Below are positions 34,543 through 43,334 of a DNA stretch of 64,000 nt, piece after piece (the first letter of the stretch is position 1; each line of letters begins with the position of its first letter). Source of the DNA: Gammaproteobacteria bacterium (GTDB taxonomy: Bacteria > Pseudomonadota > Gammaproteobacteria > UBA4575); the NCBI GenBank assembly GCA_965243395.1, contig CBDEUS010000001.1, positions 384,001 through 448,000 on the forward strand, in the 5' to 3' direction. Under the pieces are notes generated by a model, which worked only from the letters and a program-made list of their open reading frames with translations, was not told where the DNA came from and did not search any database. A program made the position numbers and the translations under genes.

Positions 34543-35652
34543 ATGACGTTGTTTAAACATTTTGATCGTTATATAGGGCGTACCGTTTTTATAGGTACCT
34601 TATTTGCGTTACTGGTTTTGTTTGCTATTGATTCGATTATTGATTTTATAAACGATGTTGAATCAGTCGACGATCGTGGCTTTACGATGACTCATGTTTT
34701 CTTGCGGCTGTTTTTTGAAATGCCTCAGCGTTTATACGAGTTTATGCCTACAGCATTGCTGCTTGGTGCATTGATTGGAATAGGCCAGCTTGCATCGAAA
34801 AGCGAACTCATTGCACTACGTGCAGCGGGAATTAGTAAATTAAGGATCATCTGGTCTGCACTAAAAGTGGGGATCGTTTTAGTCGTATTAAGTGTGTGGG
34901 TGGGAGAAATGATAGTGCCCACTTCGCAAGGTTATGTGAACAGTTTAAGTAAAAGACAAGTTCGCACAGTTGATGAAAATGGGGAAAAACTCAGTGATGT
35001 TAAAAAAATTGCATTGCGCTCAAAGTACGGTGTATGGGTGCGTGATGGTAATAAATATATTAATGCACAGGAAATTTATCCTGACTATCGAATGCGCGAC
35101 ATATGGATTTATGAACTGGATTCACAATATAAATTAAAGCGCGCTAGTTTTGCTAAACAAGCAGTTTACGTAAATGAAGTTTGGCAACTATCGGATATTA
35201 AACACAGTTTAATTTCACCTAACGGTGTTGAAACCGTTGCAGCGGAAGAGGAGCATTGGGAGAGATTAGTTTCGCCTAATTTGTTTGATGTCATCACCGT
35301 AAAACCAGAATACATGGGTGCGGCCAAGCTTAAAAAGTACATTAACTATTTAGATGGTAACGAGCTGGACTCACAACGCTATCAGCTTGCTTATTTTAAT
35401 CGTTTCGCTGTGCCATTATCCGGCATTGCAATGCTATTTCTTGCTTTACCATTTGTGTTTCGTTCTGCGCGTACCGGAGGGTTAGGGCAAAGGATCATGT
35501 TAGGTGCTGTGATTGCATTAAGCTTTAATATCTTGAGTAAAGTATTGGGTAATGCGAGCGTGGTCTATAATTTACCGCCCTTAATGGGGGCGTTTTTACC
35601 TACGTTGATTGTAATTGTTGCTGCAACTATTGCGATTCGAAGAATGGCTTGA
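34543..35652 (+). CDS. lptG: LPS export ABC permease LptG
   Basis: DRYIG, LASKSELIALRAAGIS and GVWVRDG. Confidence 0.93.
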   Translation: MTLFKHFDRYIGRTVFIGTLFALLVLFAIDSIIDFINDVESVDDRGFTMTHVFLRLFFEMPQRLYEFMPTALLLGALIGIGQLASKSELIALRAAGISKLRIIWSALKVGIVLVVLSVWVGEMIVPTSQGYVNSLSKRQVRTVDENGEKLSDVKKIALRSKYGVWVRDGNKYINAQEIYPDYRMRDIWIYELDSQYKLKRASFAKQAVYVNEVWQLSDIKHSLISPNGVETVAAEEEHWERLVSPNLFDVITVKPEYMGAAKLKKYINYLDGNELDSQRYQLAYFNRFAVPLSGIAMLFLALPFVFRSARTGGLGQRIMLGAVIALSFNILSKVLGNASVVYNLPPLMGAFLPTLIVIVAATIAIRRMA

Positions 35653-35690
35653 TTATAAATCGGTTGGGAGTTTCAATTTAGAAATTTAAT

Positions 35691-35716
35691 AAATCCGCTT
35701 TAGTCCCAAGACATTT
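35691..35716 (-). repeat. Probable decayed, inverted copy of the 32-bp palindromic site
   Basis: TCCGCTTTAG-tccca-AGACATTT versus the reverse complement of the 38915 site, TCCGCTTTAG-gtcgatagc-AGACATTT. Confidence 0.45.
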
Positions 35717-35778
35717 ATATATAACTAAAGCAGTAGATAGTAGATCAGAATATAAATCTACTCAGGTAAATTGTTACC

Positions 35779-35795
35779 TGCGACAAAATGCCACA
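35779..35795 (+). promoter_or_regulatory. RegA/PrrA/RegR-type binding box
   Basis: TGCGACAAAATGCCACA; the reverse complement GTGGCATTTTGTCGC fits the RegR-box consensus GNGRCRTTNNGNCGC; regBA lie 1.3 kb downstream. Confidence 0.7.
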
Positions 35796-35860
35796 TTCTA
35801 ATCTGTAATTCCTGATTCTAATATTCTAATTCTATTATTAATCAAAATGGAGTTAGAACA

Positions 35861-36988
35861 ATGGATTTTCCAAGCAGTAAGCACTTTTTTTTATTTCTAA
35901 TATTTTTATTCCTTTTAATTGTACTAGTAACAAAAGCGAGTGCTGATTCAACTGCTCAACCAATAGGATTTGATGTTCATTCTGAAGGTTTGAGTCGGGC
36001 AGACAGCCATGCTCCGATTGGTGTCATGGGGGATCACATGCATCACAAAGGTGAATGGATGATTTCCTATCGGTTTATGACTATGGAAATGAAAGGAAGT
36101 AGAGATGGGAGTAGTGATATTAGCCGTGATGAAATTGTTACAACTGTCCCAAACCGATTTTTTGGTATGCCTATGCAGCCGCCTACGTTACGTGTTGTAC
36201 CTACCGAGATGACAATGGACATGCATATGTTTGGTTTAATGTATGCACCGACAGATTGGTTGACTTTAATGTTGATGACTTCATACATTGAAAAAGAAAT
36301 GGATCATGTTACTTACATGGGTCCAGCGGGGACTACAGTGCTTGGTCGATTCACTACAAAATCGGAAGGGTTTGGGGACACAAAATTAAGCGGTTTGATA
36401 CGTTTATATGATGATGGGAAACATCATTTTCATCTAAATGCAGGAATTAGTTTGCCAACCGGATCAATTACAGAAGATGATGAAATTTTAGCCCCAACTG
36501 GTGCAACACCCTCACCAAATTTACCCTATCCAATGCAACTTGGTTCTGGCACATTTGACCTATTGCCAGGAATTACATATACAGCAGCTTCAGGTCGTAT
36601 GGGGTGGGGTGCTCAATATAGTGCTGTCATTCGGTTAGAAGATGAAAATCATGAAGACTATAGTCTTGGAGATGAACATCGACTTACCGCTTGGGGAAGT
36701 TACTTATGGAAACCTTGGATGAGTACATCATTACGTTTAGCGGGTCAGACTATAGATAAGATTGACGGCCAGAATCCGGATATTGTTGCTCCGGTTCAAA
36801 CTGCAGACCCTAATAACCAAGGTGGTGAGCGGGTAGATTTATTACTAGGTGTTAACTTTTCGGGGCAATCTAATTTAAAAGGCCATCGCATAGCATTTGA
36901 ATTTGGCGCACCTATTTATCAGCACTTGAATGGGCCGCAACTTGAAACTGATTGGATTTTCACTGGGGGTTATCAATTTGCGTTTTAG
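35861..36988 (+). CDS. His/Met-rich outer-membrane beta-barrel 'transporter', putative metal channel
   Basis: Signal peptide, RADSHAPIGVMGDHMHHKGEWM, MTMDMHM, GFGD, MQLGSGT and C-terminal YQFAF. Confidence 0.75.
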   Translation: MDFPSSKHFFLFLIFLFLLIVLVTKASADSTAQPIGFDVHSEGLSRADSHAPIGVMGDHMHHKGEWMISYRFMTMEMKGSRDGSSDISRDEIVTTVPNRFFGMPMQPPTLRVVPTEMTMDMHMFGLMYAPTDWLTLMLMTSYIEKEMDHVTYMGPAGTTVLGRFTTKSEGFGDTKLSGLIRLYDDGKHHFHLNAGISLPTGSITEDDEILAPTGATPSPNLPYPMQLGSGTFDLLPGITYTAASGRMGWGAQYSAVIRLEDENHEDYSLGDEHRLTAWGSYLWKPWMSTSLRLAGQTIDKIDGQNPDIVAPVQTADPNNQGGERVDLLLGVNFSGQSNLKGHRIAFEFGAPIYQHLNGPQLETDWIFTGGYQFAF

Positions 36989-37126
36989 GCCCTAGTTTTT
37001 ATCTATGAAATTAGTGTTTTATTACAATAATTAATTATCACATTTTAGGGTACAGTTTATGGGGTTGCGAGAGTAATTTTCATAAATAAAATAACGACTT
37101 AAATAATTGGATAAGTTTTAGAGCTA

Positions 37127-38389
37127 ATGAACAAACTAAATACATACACCCAGCAATCAGGACATCATGCCAACTTAAAATTACTTATCTGGTTGCGTGC
37201 AGTTTCGATTGTTGGACAATTTACCGCTGTCATTATTGCTAAACATTATCTTGAAATTTCTTTACAAACAGGTGTGTTGTATACATGGATTGGCATTTAT
37301 GTATTTATCAATCTATTAACCATCACGCGACTTTATACAAAAATTGAAATTCACAAATGGGAATTTTTTGCTCACTTAATTGTTGACATAATAATTCTGA
37401 CTATTTTATTAAAATATTCAGAAGGAGGTGCGAATCCGTTTGTTTCCCTATATTTAATCCCTCTTACCATTTCAGCAATAACGCTCCCGGCAATGTTTAC
37501 TTGGGTGTTGGCTGCTATCACGATTTGTTGTTATAGCCTACTTGTATGGGTCTTTAGCCCAATGACTGGACATAGTTTTCATGCAAATCATTTTGATGTT
37601 CATGTTATAGGTATGTGGTTGGGGTTCGTGATTAGTGCTGCTCTTGTCGCATTTTTTGTAGTTAGGATGGGCCGAATTATTCAACTACAGCAACAAAAAC
37701 TTGCAGAACAAAAATCACAACAACTACAAAACGAACAATTTGTAAAACTAGGCACGTTAGCCGCCAGTACTGCCCATGAGCTGGGTACACCACTCGGTAC
37801 TATGCAACTCGCTGTAGAAGAGTTGCAAAATAATCCTGAAGATAACAAGAAACAACTTCATATTTTAAATGATCAAATAAAACGCTGTAAAGAAGCGTTA
37901 TCAGTATTATCCGCTTCTGTAGGCGCACCGCCACTAGAAAGTGGTCAACCTATGAAGGTTAAAAACTTTATTGATGATGTCTTTAATGATTGGCAGCAGT
38001 CTCGCCCAGCCATCAATATTGAAACAAACTGGGTCTCTGATTCCTCTGGTCCAGAAATCATTGCAGAGAGATCGCTGAAACAAGCCATCAAAAATATTTT
38101 AGATAATGCAGCTGATGTATCACCAGAATATGTATTATGTGAAGCCTCGCTAAAACAAGATGAGTTGATACTCAAAGTATCAGATCATGGCCCAGGCATC
38201 ACATTTGATAAAAATGAGAAGATTGGCCAGCAACCTGTTTCAAGTAAAGCGAAAGGAATGGGGCTTGGGTTATTTTTATCGCATGGAATTATCAAAAGAT
38301 TTGGAGGAAATGTTTCTCTAAAGAATATTAGGGAAGGTGGATTACAAACCACTATTTCTTTACCAATACAAACTCTTGCCATTTCATGA
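37127..38389 (+). CDS. regB: RegB/PrrB/RoxS-family redox sensor histidine kinase
   Basis: Multiple TM helices, GGANPF, H-box AHELGTPL, redox Cys in QIKRCKE, G-boxes DHGPG and GMGLGL. Confidence 0.9.
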   Translation: MNKLNTYTQQSGHHANLKLLIWLRAVSIVGQFTAVIIAKHYLEISLQTGVLYTWIGIYVFINLLTITRLYTKIEIHKWEFFAHLIVDIIILTILLKYSEGGANPFVSLYLIPLTISAITLPAMFTWVLAAITICCYSLLVWVFSPMTGHSFHANHFDVHVIGMWLGFVISAALVAFFVVRMGRIIQLQQQKLAEQKSQQLQNEQFVKLGTLAASTAHELGTPLGTMQLAVEELQNNPEDNKKQLHILNDQIKRCKEALSVLSASVGAPPLESGQPMKVKNFIDDVFNDWQQSRPAINIETNWVSDSSGPEIIAERSLKQAIKNILDNAADVSPEYVLCEASLKQDELILKVSDHGPGITFDKNEKIGQQPVSSKAKGMGLGLFLSHGIIKRFGGNVSLKNIREGGLQTTISLPIQTLAIS

Positions 38390-38916
38390 ATAATAATTTG
38401 CTCATAGTTGAAGATGATGAAGCTTTTTCATGTGCGCTCGGAAACGCACTAGAGAAAAAAGGATTCAATGTATTTAGTTCAAGTACAGTAAGCTCTGCAA
38501 TTCATGCAGCGAATACACACTCCCCAAATTTTGCTGTTATAGATTTAAAATTAGAAAATGAATCGGGTCTGAAGATTATTCCAGTATTAAAAGGGCTAAA
38601 CTCTAAAATAAAAATAGTCGTGCTTACTGGATATGCAAGCATTGCTACCGCAGTAGAGGCTATTAAACTTGGGGCAATGCAATATTTAACAAAACCCGCT
38701 AGTAGCGAAGAAATTTATCAAGCGTTTTTTAAATCAGACGGAGATGCGGAACAAAATCTTGTTTCAAATCCAATGTCTCTAAGACGTCTTGAATGGGAGC
38801 ATATTCAAAAAGTACTAAGCGAAAATGATGGAAATTTATCTGCCACTGCAAGAGCATTGGGAATGCATCGAAGAACTTTGCAGCGCAAATTAAATAAGAA
38901 TCCTGCAAAAAATTAA
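38386..38916 (+). CDS. regA: RegA/PrrA/RoxR-family response regulator
   Basis: VLTGYASIATAVEAIKLGA, LEWEHIQ and NLSATARALGMHRRTLQRKL. Confidence 0.93.
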   Translation: MNNNLLIVEDDEAFSCALGNALEKKGFNVFSSSTVSSAIHAANTHSPNFAVIDLKLENESGLKIIPVLKGLNSKIKIVVLTGYASIATAVEAIKLGAMQYLTKPASSEEIYQAFFKSDGDAEQNLVSNPMSLRRLEWEHIQKVLSENDGNLSATARALGMHRRTLQRKLNKNPAKN

Positions 38917-38946
38917 ATGTCTGCTATCGACCTAAAGCGGACATTT
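38915..38946 (+). repeat. 32-bp imperfect palindrome, copy 1 (11-10-11)
   Basis: AAATGTCTGCT-ATCGACCTAA-AGCGGACATTT; overlaps the regA stop codon. Confidence 0.85.
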
Positions 38947-38963
38947 TGAAGTCTTTTATTCAG

Positions 38964-39395
38964 ATGAAGTATTTATTCAGCTTAGCTTGGTTATTGCTGA
39001 TACTGTTGCTTCTTTCATCTTGTGGACCATCTTGCCAAAAAGACTCTGAGGCTGTTGTATTTGCAAAATCTTTGTCAAATGAACAACTCGAAAAATTATT
39101 TATTGATATGCAAACACACTGGAGAAGATTCGACGCTCCTGACGATGGATACTTTCGGGGAACAGAGCCTATTGAGTTTGCTTATCTAAATGCTGCAAAG
39201 GTAAGACCAAGAGATATGAACATAATGCTAGAAGGGTGTCTCGATGAATTTGTCGGCTTAATATTTCACGGGTTCACACTTGAGCCAGATGATGTGATTA
39301 AAGAGCAGAAAATTGAAATTGAATATCACGACAGAGAAAATATAGTGCGAGAGGTATTATGGGTAAACGTTAAATTAGATGATAAAGACAAATGA
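38964..39395 (+). CDS. Hypothetical lipoprotein (candidate cassette cargo)
   Basis: MKYLFSLAWLLLILLLLSSC lipobox from ATG 38964; stop codon lies inside the downstream palindrome. Confidence 0.7.
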   Translation: MKYLFSLAWLLLILLLLSSCGPSCQKDSEAVVFAKSLSNEQLEKLFIDMQTHWRRFDAPDDGYFRGTEPIEFAYLNAAKVRPRDMNIMLEGCLDEFVGLIFHGFTLEPDDVIKEQKIEIEYHDRENIVREVLWVNVKLDDKDK

Positions 39396-39421
39396 CCGTT
39401 ATTGGCCGAAAGCAGTCATTT
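39390..39421 (+). repeat. 32-bp imperfect palindrome, copy 2 (11-10-11)
   Basis: AAATGACCGTT-ATTGGCCGAA-AGCAGTCATTT; 24/32 identical to copy 1, same orientation. Confidence 0.85.
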
Positions 39422-39446
39422 TAAAAACGGAGTATTTCTATTCAGA

Positions 39447-39488
39447 AACAACATCCATGTTGTTACTCATATTCGCACATCCATGTGC
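39447..39488. repeat. Two short hairpins sharing the core ACATCCATGT
   Basis: AACAACAT-CC-ATGTTGTT (39447-39464) and GCACAT-CC-ATGTGC (39475-39488). Confidence 0.7.
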
Positions 39489-39672
39489 TCACTACTCACT
39501 GCAATAGGTAATTTCTTGCTAAAGATATAGTAGGAAGGTCATGTATTTATATGCAATGACTTTGATTCCATGGGCTCATGTAAGTTTTTGGTCTTTTGTC
39601 AGGTCAGATAACTAAGTTGAACAACAGAATGAGGAGCTAACTTTTTATACTCCTTGTGAAATTGAGGCAAAG

Positions 39673-40281
39673 TTGAATCAAAAACCTATTAAAGTAACTA
39701 TATTTCGTTGGGCAGGTTCCTGGGGGCCTTTCAAAGTTAAAATTTCTTGTGGTGAATGTACTTTAACCAAAGATGTAATTTTAGATACTCTTGAAAATGA
39801 ATTATCTGGAATTTCAATAGAAATAGAATCACGAGAATGGCTGAGTGAATGGTGGAAGCCTTTAGCAAAAGGAGGATGGCATGCTCCAATTGTAATGGTT
39901 GAAGGTAAAGTTGTAAGTCAAGGAGTTGCAATCAACCGAGGTATTCTTACGCAAGCAGTTATTGAAGCCTATTCTAGAAATTTAGAAATTGAAGGCAACC
40001 ATCTTTTTGGAAAAGAAAGTTGTCCTCATTGTAAACGGGCGAAAGGGTATCTTGATCAGGCTCAAATTCCTTATCACTATCATGATGTTGTCAAAAGCCC
40101 AAGTGGCTTGTATGAAATGCTTGCTCGTGTGAAACCTCTTATTGGTTCTAAAACACCTGTAACTGTTCCACAAATATGGCTTGATGGCACATACATAGGA
40201 GGAGCGGATCAGCTTAGTAACGTAGTACAGCAAAAAGTCGAACCTAATTTTGATCGTGGTAAGTGCTCAATTTCTCCATAA
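39673..40281 (+). CDS. Two-domain thioredoxin-fold/glutaredoxin protein
   Basis: N-domain CGEC...WHAPIV; C-domain CPHC, TVPQIW and IGG; TTG start with GAGG SD. Confidence 0.8.
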   Translation: MNQKPIKVTIFRWAGSWGPFKVKISCGECTLTKDVILDTLENELSGISIEIESREWLSEWWKPLAKGGWHAPIVMVEGKVVSQGVAINRGILTQAVIEAYSRNLEIEGNHLFGKESCPHCKRAKGYLDQAQIPYHYHDVVKSPSGLYEMLARVKPLIGSKTPVTVPQIWLDGTYIGGADQLSNVVQQKVEPNFDRGKCSISP

Positions 40282-40544
40282 AGTCGCAGATCACACAATA
40301 AAATTCACTCCATATTATTTCCTCAGTTTTTCAGCTCTCAGAGAAAATCTTAAGAAAATATCAACAGCAATCTATGTAGAGAGTGACACTGAATACAAAG
40401 TAATCAAATTTAAATTTATTTTTTATCAGTGAGATACTAAAACCATCTGTAGTAAATTCTTAACAAGAATAAATTTAATTTCTCATTCATCTGGTTAGTG
40501 TAAAATAATGCCTTAAAAAATAATTTAATTAATTTGGAGGAGCT

Positions 40545-40765
40545 ATGAAAAAACCAGTATTCACTGCGACTCTATTCATCACAATTATATTAATACCGTT
40601 TCTTGCTTTTTCTGACAGAAATGAGCATAAAGAAACAATCAAAGTTCCGCATTCACTAAAACTACTGCTATTCCGAGTGATGTGTATGTAAATCCTCAAT
40701 TTGATATGGAAGCTGATAGGGAATATAACGAGCAGGCTGAAATGGAATTTCGTGTGTGTGGTTAG
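40545..40765 (+). pseudogene. Small secreted protein gene, apparently frameshifted
   Basis: GGAGG SD, signal peptide MKKPVFTATLFITIILIPFLAFS; frame 0 stops at 40691 (48 aa) while the -1 frame stays open to TAG 40765. Confidence 0.5.
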
Positions 40766-40820
40766 CCAAATAATTTGGTATAAGTTGCAGCCATAATAGA
40801 ATCTATTAACTAGATCATGT

Positions 40821-40860
40821 AAAGAAGCTTAATTGTATTGGGCTTCTTTGTAGTTTTATT
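40821..40860 (+). terminator. Rho-independent terminator-like hairpin
   Basis: AAAGAAGCTTAAT-TGT-ATTGGGCTTCTTT (two G-U pairs) followed by a T-rich tract. Confidence 0.5.
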
Positions 40861-40914
40861 TTCCTTATTTTTTACGCAAACGCGATCCTAGTTTGAATAA
40901 ACTAATGCCAAGTA

Positions 40915-41709
40915 ATGACTATCAATATCGAAGATAAATATGTAGGGCTCATCCCAGCTGCTGGATGTGCCAGTCGCTTACCAAACTTAGGTTGTAGTAA
41001 AGAAATTTATCCAATACCTACGATTACCGAGCAGAATGAACAAAAATTTACCCCTGTAAGTTCTTATCTTATCCAGTCTTATCAAAGGGCAAGCATAAAT
41101 AATATAAAGATTATTCTTCGTGATGGTAAAGAAGATATCATTGAAACATTAGGCAATGGTCAGCAATATGGCGTACAGCTAAGTTATTTGTACACACAGA
41201 TTTTTCATGGCCCACCTTATAGCTTAGATGCTGCCTTTTCAGATGTTCAAAGCAAATCCATTGCGGTTGGATTTCCTGATATTTTGTTCACACCTCAAGA
41301 TGCATTTGCATCGCTTATTAATAAACAAGAACAGACTCAAGCCGATGTTGTTCTGGGCCTGTTTGTTGCGCCACATCCACATAAAATGGATATGATTGAA
41401 TTTGATTCAGCGAGCAACATTAAATCCATTCACATTAAACCTTCGCAGTCTCCACTAAAATGGACGTGGATATTAGCGGTGTGGACACCTCTTTTTAGTG
41501 TGTTTATGCATCAAACACTGAAAAAAATGCTGCCTGAATTTGAGACCAAACAGCGCAATGAGTGCCATATTGGAACTATTTTTCAACTAGCATTAAACGA
41601 GGGACTTCGTTTTGATTATGTGTATTATGATACAGGTGAGTTGATTGATATAGGCACCCCGGATGACTTGCATCGCATTGAGCATTCATGCCCGGACTGG
41701 CTTAAATAA
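40915..41709 (+). CDS. Sugar-phosphate nucleotidyltransferase (RmlA/dTDP-glucose pyrophosphorylase-like)
   Basis: IPAAGCASRL...SKE, GFPD and DIGTPDDL. Confidence 0.8.
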   Translation: MTINIEDKYVGLIPAAGCASRLPNLGCSKEIYPIPTITEQNEQKFTPVSSYLIQSYQRASINNIKIILRDGKEDIIETLGNGQQYGVQLSYLYTQIFHGPPYSLDAAFSDVQSKSIAVGFPDILFTPQDAFASLINKQEQTQADVVLGLFVAPHPHKMDMIEFDSASNIKSIHIKPSQSPLKWTWILAVWTPLFSVFMHQTLKKMLPEFETKQRNECHIGTIFQLALNEGLRFDYVYYDTGELIDIGTPDDLHRIEHSCPDWLK

Positions 41710-42416: not shown

Positions 42417-43334
42417 ATGAGTGATTCTTCATTTACTTTGCCGCCTGACCAGCCTGTTATTGAGGCTTTTCTTGATACTTTGTGGGTAGAACATGGCTTA
42501 AGTGAGAACACATTATCTGCGTATCGTAACGATTTGTTAGGTTTGTCGAAGTGGTTGTCTAAAATGACAGTGAATATTACCGATGCCCGCCGAGATCATT
42601 TATTGGATTATTTGTCCTATCGTGTGCAACAAGGCAGTATGCCGCGTACTTCTGCAAGATTATTATCAAGTATTCGACGTTTTTATCGTTATCTTGTGCG
42701 ACAAGGCGCTGTGCAGAAAGATCCTTCTGCACAAATTGAATTTCCGAAACTCGGTCGTCCGTTACCCGAAACTTTAACGGAAGAAGAGGTTGAACGTTTA
42801 CTCGCTGCACCTAATACAAATAAGGCGCAAGGGGTGCGTGACCGTGCAATGTTAGAGGTACTTTATGCTTGCGGATTGCGAGTTAGTGAATTGATTGGCT
42901 TAACACTCAGTCAAGTAAACTTAAATCATGGTGTAATTCGCGTGACAGGCAAGGGCAATAAAGAACGCTTAATTCCATTTGGAGAGCAAGCCAATGAATG
43001 GATTTCGAAATTCATAAATGAAGCACGAGCAGATTTGTTAAAAAATAATCGTCCTTGCGATGCATTATTTATAACTAATCGAGGTGCTGCAATGACACGG
43101 CAGGCATTTTGGCATTTGATTAAAAAGCACTCGAAAAATGTAGGCATTACTAAGCACTTATCTCCACATACTTTGCGACATGCATTTGCGACTCATTTGT
43201 TAAATCATGGTGCGGATTTGCGCGTTGTGCAAATGCTATTAGGACATAGTGACCTATCTACCACGCAAATATATACGCATGTAGCACAAGCAAGATTACA
43301 GGAACTGCACCGCAAGCATCATCCCCGAGGCTAA
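42417..43334 (+). CDS. xerD: Tyrosine recombinase XerD
   Basis: YACGLRVSEL, GKGNKER, SPHTLRHAFATHLL and LGHSDLSTTQIYTHV; upstream of dsbC. Confidence 0.95.
   Translation: MSDSSFTLPPDQPVIEAFLDTLWVEHGLSENTLSAYRNDLLGLSKWLSKMTVNITDARRDHLLDYLSYRVQQGSMPRTSARLLSSIRRFYRYLVRQGAVQKDPSAQIEFPKLGRPLPETLTEEEVERLLAAPNTNKAQGVRDRAMLEVLYACGLRVSELIGLTLSQVNLNHGVIRVTGKGNKERLIPFGEQANEWISKFINEARADLLKNNRPCDALFITNRGAAMTRQAFWHLIKKHSKNVGITKHLSPHTLRHAFATHLLNHGADLRVVQMLLGHSDLSTTQIYTHVAQARLQELHRKHHPRG

Follow-up and report, generated by a model that had tools for sequence, protein, structure and literature searches.

What kind of unit is the small gene that follows the regA-like response regulator gene in a gammaproteobacterial genome of the UBA4575 lineage, where it stands between two 32-bp palindromic sites in the same orientation? 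The genome, G000, has a size of 2.58 Mb and a guanine plus cytosine (GC) content of 38%, and is assembled into two contigs, C1 and C2. The window is the whole 64,000-nucleotide (nt) stretch that was analysed, G000:C1:384001–448000, and positions given without a contig are window positions. An earlier note on the window proposed that the gene belongs to an excisable 475-bp unit of a candidate cassette-recombination system. Integrons are the textbook means by which bacteria stockpile and shuffle single genes and, to our knowledge, cassette detection tools look only for IntI and attC. The analysis reported here points to the 475-bp unit as one cassette of an integron-like, integron-independent cassette system, a reading to which we give a probability of roughly 0.6. 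The cassette system appears to be real and widespread and is apparently without prior description. No description of the site motif was found in the literature, and its 12–13-nt motif strings occur in no relevant paper among the openly accessible texts, subscription journals and supplementary files being outside the scope of that search.

The site family and the order of the arrays

The regB-like sensor kinase gene (37127..38389) and the regA-like gene (38386..38916; Response_reg and Fis-type helix-turn-helix domains by Pfam) precede the unit and lie on the forward strand, as do all features of the locus described here. The TAA of regA (38914–38916) overlaps site 1 (38915..38946), and site 2 is found at 39390..39421. 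The sites are as the earlier note gave them and have 24 of 32 positions in common. They enclose a single open reading frame (ORF), at 38964..39395, which forms the cargo of the unit and encodes a predicted lipoprotein of 143 amino acids (aa) with a signal peptide and LSSC lipobox. The ATG is situated 17 nt past site 1, with an alternative in-frame TTG start at 38946, and the TGA (39393–39395) lies in the left arm of site 2. The lipoprotein matched no Pfam or NCBIfam family and is found in none of 40 relatives. In a search of 5.8 billion proteins, only one relative was found besides the protein itself (73% identity, 95 aa). Metagenome scans showed no relative of the lipoprotein and a best RegA identity of at most 62%, so strain-level alleles were unavailable from them. 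The degenerate pattern proposed for the sites gives four strand-matches in the window, all at these two sites, compared with a mean of 0.17 in shuffles, where 0 of 100 reach four.

Both window sites are members of a family of about 95 sites in G000, each a 30-bp near-palindrome of the form AATGNCNGCT-N10-AGCNGNCATT. There are two loop types, A (AACGACCCAA) and B (ATTGGCCGAA), which are three loop positions apart. Site 1 is A-type with the loop ATCGACCTAA (nhmmer score 36.7) and site 2 is B-type (score 32.6). Genome-wide, the degenerate pattern shows 24, 79, 124 and 165 strand-matches at 0, 1, 2 and 3 mismatches, and an nhmmer profile built from 64 oriented copies yields 95 loci at E ≤ 0.05. 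These loci are not scattered; they form about 14 clusters with gene-sized spacing, and sites are present in the pgeF-clpB island of G000 as well. Orientation follows the genes. Among the 82 sites with a score of 20 or more, 70 have an ORF within 150 nt upstream, and 68 of these ORFs share the strand of the site, as do 51 of 61 downstream ORFs. The ORF stops mostly fall −6 to +14 nt from the site, with the next start usually within 40 nt. The many copies flanking variable single genes that the earlier note had anticipated are thus present, as about 95 sites in about 14 arrays.

Eight of the ten arm pairs are invariant across the 64 oriented sites, and the variable pairs are often mismatched (positions 5–26, TA in 29 sites and AA in 26; positions 7–24, CG in 22, TG in 16 and CA in 17). 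The compensatory swap at positions 6/27 that the earlier note saw between the two window sites is no rule of the family: the pair is TA in 29 of the 64 sites, AA in 26, AT in six, TT in two and AG in one. As single-stranded DNA, site 1 folds with −7.9 kcal/mol (z = −4.4), and site 2 is a poor hairpin (top strand −2.9 kcal/mol, z = −0.7; bottom strand −4.7 kcal/mol, z = −2.0). Identical arms are present in hosts spanning 38% to 61% GC, which favours recognition of the sequence by a protein over a structural hairpin.

The 9-mers of the half-sites show no independent dispersal. Outside full sites they number 12, 21, 28 and 25, and reversed control words 9, 19, 8 and 7, so that the unit is the whole palindrome. 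An uptake signal was considered and rejected, two half-site words being at background and two modestly above it.

Arrays have the order A-ORF-B, a conserved 43-bp linker, and again A-ORF-B. The B-linker-A spacing is identical in 26 junctions from G000, from G012, the nearest relative of G000 (RegA 91% identical), and from G022, which belongs to another genus (RegA only about 72% identical). The linker core is strongly conserved, with a consensus of the 26 junctions of ...aATGaCCGCTatTGGCCGAAAGcAGaCAtAAaatgggAcg.A.taGGTTGGAATCAAt.A.aTACAAg...AAAATGTCcGgTAaCGACCCAAAGCgGACATT, and the linker carries a conserved GGTTGGAATCAA. Many other junctions consist of a single site without linker. From copy to copy and from genome to genome, the 105-bp B-linker-A composites are 75–90% alike. 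Their bottom strand can fold into one long imperfect hairpin (−27.2 kcal/mol, vs. −20.2 kcal/mol for the top strand) in which the outer arms and part of both loops pair; the shape is attC-like, without covariation support. A coding reading of the linker was rejected, in that an ATG opens a frame through site A in some copies and the frame is lost in others.

The linker also displays a promoter-like motif, TTGGAA, a 17-nt gap and NAAAAT overlapping the first bases of A. A consensus scan shows TTGGAA-17-TAAAAT at a fixed place in six G012 linkers and a TTGGGA variant at a seventh. Promoter-like matches in the whole G012 array total 48, vs. 66.6 in shuffles, and with this count a putative linker promoter is to be taken only as a lead. 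The window cassette has no linker and would depend on read-through from regBA.

Spread of the sites and turnover of the cargo

Genomes were termed site-rich when they carried at least 10 pattern matches with up to two mismatches. By this measure 20 of 41 genomes, including G000, are site-rich and the other 21 site-poor; G014, G016, G018, G020 and G023 are examples of site-free sister genomes. Sites are found in 13 of 14 other genomes searched within the genus (29–202 matches per strand), in five other genera of the family (12–190 matches) and in G038, a genome from another family (26 matches). A reversed control pattern gives 0 matches in every genome of the 41. An even sample of the class shows matches at up to one mismatch in 10 of 400 other genomes, and the loop motifs are the same; these genome surveys covered one phylum. 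The site-ORF-site order is kept in G038, G157 and G255 (44–54% GC). An exact-pattern scan of viral contigs shows 18 loci with 53–61% GC, several of which have multiple copies and a shorter two-site composite. The 126-bp composite gives no match at E ≤ 0.01 in plasmid and phage collections.

At three of the viral loci (L146, L148 and L155), which are phage-like with 56–57% GC, a variant composite is situated just downstream of a recombinase gene. It consists of a site with the loop TTCGGGGGTA, a linker of about 15 nt ending in TTGCACTGCA, and an A-type site. Two kinds occur, small tyrosine recombinases of 213 and 199 aa and a large serine recombinase that carries DUF2924. Other copies of the viral composite follow terminase genes.

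The ORFs next to the sites are largely without assigned family: 50 of 83 show no Pfam match, a few of the 83 being flanking core genes. The others include GNAT, glyoxalase, OsmC, SRPBCC, methyltransferase, BLUF and Usp proteins, several domains of unknown function, and nucleases with a Rap1a immunity gene. Hsp20, RRM and an AraC/GyrI protein that has a 'Cass2' domain are further cargo in the arrays of relatives. This cargo is much like that of chromosomal integrons. The arrays end at housekeeping genes, namely rpoD (in both G000 and G038), nuoN, amtB and scpB/rluB, which suggests a docking preference for the 3′ ends of certain housekeeping operons (rpoD, amtB, nuoN, regA).

Arrays that start directly downstream of rpoD are found in G000 at C2:543117–544888 (L019), in G038 on contig C59 (L238, 6359–8901) and at L242. 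A gene for a 1707-aa RHS-repeat protein (C1:237692–242815, L011) adjoins the C1:232–236 kb array, and an Endonuclease_NS gene with a Rap1a immunity gene is found at the end of the C2:536–543 kb array.

While the sites are kept across genera, the cargo is not, and the two closest genomes have almost no cassette content in common. Within an 11-kb array region of G000 only the rpoD flank matches G012 (90%); G012 carries no sites there and has a 16-kb array of about 25 cassettes elsewhere. A 13-kb array region of G000 maps to five places on four G012 contigs, and pieces of it that span one gene have matches of 67–83% in other species and genera. Each shared piece that was fetched is an ORF between or beside sites in the other genome as well. 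One ORF is common to G000, G004, G022 and G024 and is found at different loci; its upstream site is A-type in three of them, and its downstream site is A-type in one and B-type in two. The earlier expectation that the same ORF would recur with sites elsewhere therefore holds for other cassette ORFs, which do so in other genera; for the lipoprotein itself no such case was seen.

The regA locus is an example of this turnover. G000 and G012 align at 86% over the conserved flank (35000–38944), that is, up to a point inside site 1, and at 88% again from 40410. Between these points (38945..40409) G000 has 1465 bp and G012 740 bp (blastn). The G000 segment contains the cassette, a structured repeat termed the T element (39424..39530), and a 202-aa ORF with a C-terminal glutaredoxin domain by NCBIfam (39673–40281), which is missing from G012 and is followed by no recognisable site on its 3′ side. 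The G012 segment holds a different cassette: a B-type site lies over the stop of regA, and behind it come the linker, an A site in decay, an ORF for a membrane protein, another decayed site and a T-like element. The cassette behind regA in G012 encodes 146 aa and shows 94.5% protein and 85% DNA identity to the first cassette of an array in G022, which lies between scpB and rluB. The linker homology between these two copies was rejected as a mark of the cassette boundary, since linker and site A are alike in all copies. At ten other regA loci of the genus there is no site, and in seven of the ten regA meets a convergent 245-aa ORF.

The T element is a pair of hairpins, each with a TCCM loop, and the conserved spacer that connects them resembles TCTTATTC. 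In the window copy the two short hairpins are at 39447–39464 and 39475–39488. There are 33 copies in G000 at E ≤ 1, and the stems vary yet keep pairing. Fourteen of the 33 lie within 200 nt of a palindromic site, a reach that covers only 2% of the genome. Several arrays have the element behind their last site, at a short and constant distance from the final B, and an inverted copy is often present ahead of the first site, so that the arrays look bracketed. A search of window positions 38000–41000 against Rfam showed no family, only three chance matches below the gathering threshold. Further copies in G000 are found at C1:30444–30549, C2:997699–997806, C2:659547–659613 and C2:1046983–1047051. 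Another local repeat follows several terminal B sites in an island at C1:874–905 kb (893544–893619, 902052–902093, 905287–905315 and 898703–898746), and no tRNA gene is present in C1:870–905 kb.

Comparison with known systems

The likeness to integrons and to clusters of attC sites lacking integron-integrases (CALINs) is extensive. The arrays are rows of co-oriented, mostly promoterless single ORFs of unknown or stress-type function, each ending at a repeated imperfect palindrome. Cargo turns over rapidly among close relatives, the same cassettes occur in different arrays, and the bottom strand of the B-linker-A composite can fold like attC. The sites themselves differ. attC sites are 57–141 bp in length and carry R″ (RYYYAAC) and R′ (GTTRRRY) cores and extrahelical bases. 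The present sites are 30 bp (composite 105 bp) and have the ends AATG...CATT in place of RYYYAAC...GTTRRRY, with no AAC/GTT at the site ends. Here the sequence itself, and not only the structure, is conserved across genera, and there are about 14 arrays per genome, none of which adjoins a recombinase.

Among repetitive extragenic palindromic (REP) elements, and the bacterial interspersed mosaic elements (BIMEs) and REPINs formed from them, there are also short extragenic palindromes with about 100 or more copies per genome and a lineage-wide distribution, often as paired composites with a fixed linker just behind stop codons. Here the two sites of a composite are direct instead of inverted, and the sites gather in arrays among accessory ORFs and have apparently passed from family to family. 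A RAYT transposase gene typically has its REPs on either side, and a GTAG or CGTC tag at one end of the palindrome is given as a REP feature in PMC3733652. Neither tag is found in the 64 oriented sites or their flanks.

The pdif modules of Acinetobacter plasmids resemble the present units in being discrete gene modules with short recombination-type sites and no dedicated recombinase nearby. A pdif site has 28 bp, with 11-bp XerC and XerD arms on either side of a 6-bp spacer, and resembles the host dif. The arrangement here is 10-10-10 instead of 11-6-11, without CATAA/TTATG inner arms and with no arm common to the host dif. In addition, pdif sites alternate in orientation, whereas the present sites are direct repeats. 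The absence of attC cores, of dif/pdif arms and of GTAG tags, noticed earlier at the two window sites, is therefore borne out. The intergenic mosaic elements (dRS3 repeats) and Correia elements of Neisseria are likewise fixed-length palindromes with a spacer that form intergenic composites, have possible outward promoters and are associated with variable gene content. Their sequence is unrelated, and here each unit holds a whole ORF and the arrays extend over many kb. As to IS200/IS605 elements and palindrome-associated transposable elements (PATEs), these have a fixed target of four or five nucleotides at the left end, whereas G000 contains no Y1_Tnp or TnpB, and no constant flank is seen upstream of A sites.

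Weighing of the cassette reading

On the reading that we favour, a cassette is a single, usually promoterless ORF with an A-type site upstream and a B-type site downstream, both in the orientation of the gene. Cassettes accumulate in arrays behind the 3′ ends of housekeeping genes (regA, rpoD, amtB, nuoN) and, on an evolutionary time scale, are gained, lost and exchanged among species and genera at the sites. The results establish the site family, the order of the arrays, the rule of orientation, the persistence of sites while cargo changes, and the presence of identical cargo at separate loci in separate genera. The mechanism may be site-specific recombination of directly repeated sites, which would excise a circle, and any resident site could take this circle up again. 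The enzyme, supplied in trans, would fall outside all the families searched. The window cassette probably entered a site already present behind regA and would be transcribed by read-through from regBA. What the earlier note held to be fatal to this proposal was not encountered: copies number about 95 instead of two, they stand in arrays of accessory ORFs, and the lipoprotein is not a conserved neighbour of regA among the 40 relatives.

Several results weigh against this reading, first of all those of the enzyme search. No recombinase is found at array ends in G000, G012, G022, G038 or G157. The best G000 match to IntI (TIGR02249) reaches 83 bits compared with a cut-off of 265, and is XerD. Over the 41 genomes IntI exceeds the cut-off in six, one of the 20 site-rich and five of the 21 site-poor; in G015, which has both IntI and sites, the array adjoining IntI holds none of these sites. 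Y1_Tnp (PF01797, the RAYT/Y1 HUH family) is not found in G000 at E ≤ 0.01 and is present in three of the 20 site-rich vs. 12 of the 21 site-poor genomes. G000 is also without serine recombinase, IS110, rve (DDE transposase), reverse transcriptase and TnpB (zinc-ribbon). Its tyrosine recombinases are five, XerC, XerD and three P4-like integrases. Only XerC and XerD are common to G000, G001, G011, G012, G019 and G022, and G011 has 106 site matches per strand, yet only XerC, XerD and one integrase. Thus the recombinase or HUH nuclease that had been expected to co-occur with the sites does not emerge from the known candidates searched, none of which tracks them. For this reason the proposal of an excisable 475-bp unit moved by a recombinase is one that we infer.

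A XerD-like tyrosine recombinase gene is situated in the window at 42417–43334, 3 kb downstream of the cassette. It looks housekeeping, with orthologues in all five relatives checked, and is not tied to arrays. The dif site of G000 is canonical (GCATAA-TATATA-TTATGTTAAAT) and lies outside the window at C1:959293. GC skew and dif place the terminus near C1:940–959 kb and the origin near C2:400 kb; the replichores are very unequal (about 1.8 vs. 0.7 Mb) if both contigs form one chromosome. The recombinases of the viral contigs (199 and 213 aa tyrosine, one large serine) were not accepted as the enzyme of the system, because they are of different families and have no counterpart in G000.

The sites and the loci provide further points on the same side. 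With eight arm pairs never varying and the variable ones often mismatched, there is no covariation support for a folded form. A strict replication-strand rule was rejected, as 51 of 82 sites have the leading-strand orientation and 31 the lagging. No empty single-site allele was seen behind regA in G012 or at the ten other same-genus loci, where the earlier note had expected one. Excision was looked for in assembled contigs (not reads) of four public runs over positions 37300–41500, and no excision product or circle of the 475-bp unit was seen. In three metagenome runs the contigs cover regA and the DNA from about 39415 onwards and not 38992–39273, and none bridges this gap, which speaks neither for nor against excision. 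In run X15, two apparent joints from 38947 to 39389/39391 were rejected, since they stem from A...B pairs elsewhere in the same genome; in one of them, 1004 letters separate the two sides. Moreover, a crossover point, wherever it may fall, is unplaceable by alignment, because sites and linkers are alike everywhere and alignments enter them regardless of descent. Finally, ordinary homologous recombination between the conserved sites could account for the exchange.

The last point leads to the main rival. The palindromes would be REP-like host elements (stem-loops of untranslated regions, operators or insulators) that serve the expression of accessory genes, and the shuffling would be a by-product of RecA recombination of imported DNA at the 30-bp sites and 105-bp composites, with no dedicated recombinase. 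Such a role at the RNA level suits sites that are strictly co-oriented with genes and adjoin stop codons, and the fixed promoter-like motif of the G012 linkers agrees with it, though not the low total of such matches in that array. No recombinase tracks the sites, and composites that are 75–90% alike are similar enough for homologous exchange. The T element, a second structured repeat with covarying stems, is found at array ends and behind ordinary genes too. However, what is kept in the sites is sequence and not stability, as indicated by the identical arms over the GC range, the common mismatches and the barely folding site 2. The loops fall into two discrete types, one with a fixed role upstream and the other downstream, and the sites occur almost only among accessory cassettes and are not spread over operons as REPs are. 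We therefore consider this explanation doubtful, while taking it more seriously than any other rival.

Non-autonomous transposons with hairpin ends are another explanation. A and B would be the left end (LE) and right end (RE) of tandem IS200/IS605-like cargo elements, or B-linker-A would be a Correia-like miniature inverted-repeat transposable element with an outward promoter, and the transposase would be absent from G000 or unrecognised in it. A and B are indeed similar palindromes in the same direction that differ in their loops, as LE and RE hairpins do; a constant 43 nt separates B from A in the 26 junctions; and the two ends of the composite form imperfect inverted repeats of about 30 bp (B vs. 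the reverse complement of A, 20/30), in addition to its long bottom-strand hairpin. On the other hand, Y1_Tnp is found mainly where the sites are few, G000 carries no TnpB, rve or IS110, and many junctions are a single site without linker. The type of the 3′ site of one and the same ORF varies between genomes, a variation that transposon ends of a fixed kind would not permit, and no target duplication or constant flank is visible. This origin is unlikely.

That the two window sites are ordinary intrinsic terminators or a chance pair is hardly credible: both do follow stop codons and site 1 folds well, but four pattern matches stand against 0.17 expected, the family has about 95 members whose loops are conserved, the fold of site 2 does not surpass that of shuffles (z = −0.7), an intrinsic terminator being a stable GC-rich hairpin with a U tract behind it, and neither site has a T tract, the T runs reported earlier being none beyond the TTT(T) that ends the arm. 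A terminator scan listed neither site, and its 3–8 nt loop limit excludes 10-nt loops in any case.

Returning to the cassette reading, a wider form of it can be put forward tentatively, at somewhat less than even odds. This would be a widespread gene-capture system that parallels integrons without their parts. A two-flavour 30-bp palindrome would mark the start and end of each cassette and the linker would serve as a promoter that moves with it. Each genome would hold dozens to hundreds of cassettes, distributed over many arrays behind housekeeping genes, and these cassettes would be moved by an unrecognised enzyme family or a co-opted housekeeping enzyme. The system would reach across the Gammaproteobacteria into high-GC lineages and phage-like DNA.

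The arrays have the architecture of integrons, built from different parts. They occupy several percent of small marine-type genomes, and their cassette pool changes from one sister species to the next and extends over the limits of genera and families. Should an enzyme act on the sites, this would be a new recombination system, with a compact 30-bp site usable as a tool. Should there be none, the case would show that a cassette gene pool can be organised by short conserved palindromes alone. In both cases, a sizeable share of the accessory genome in these bacteria escapes current mobile-element annotation.

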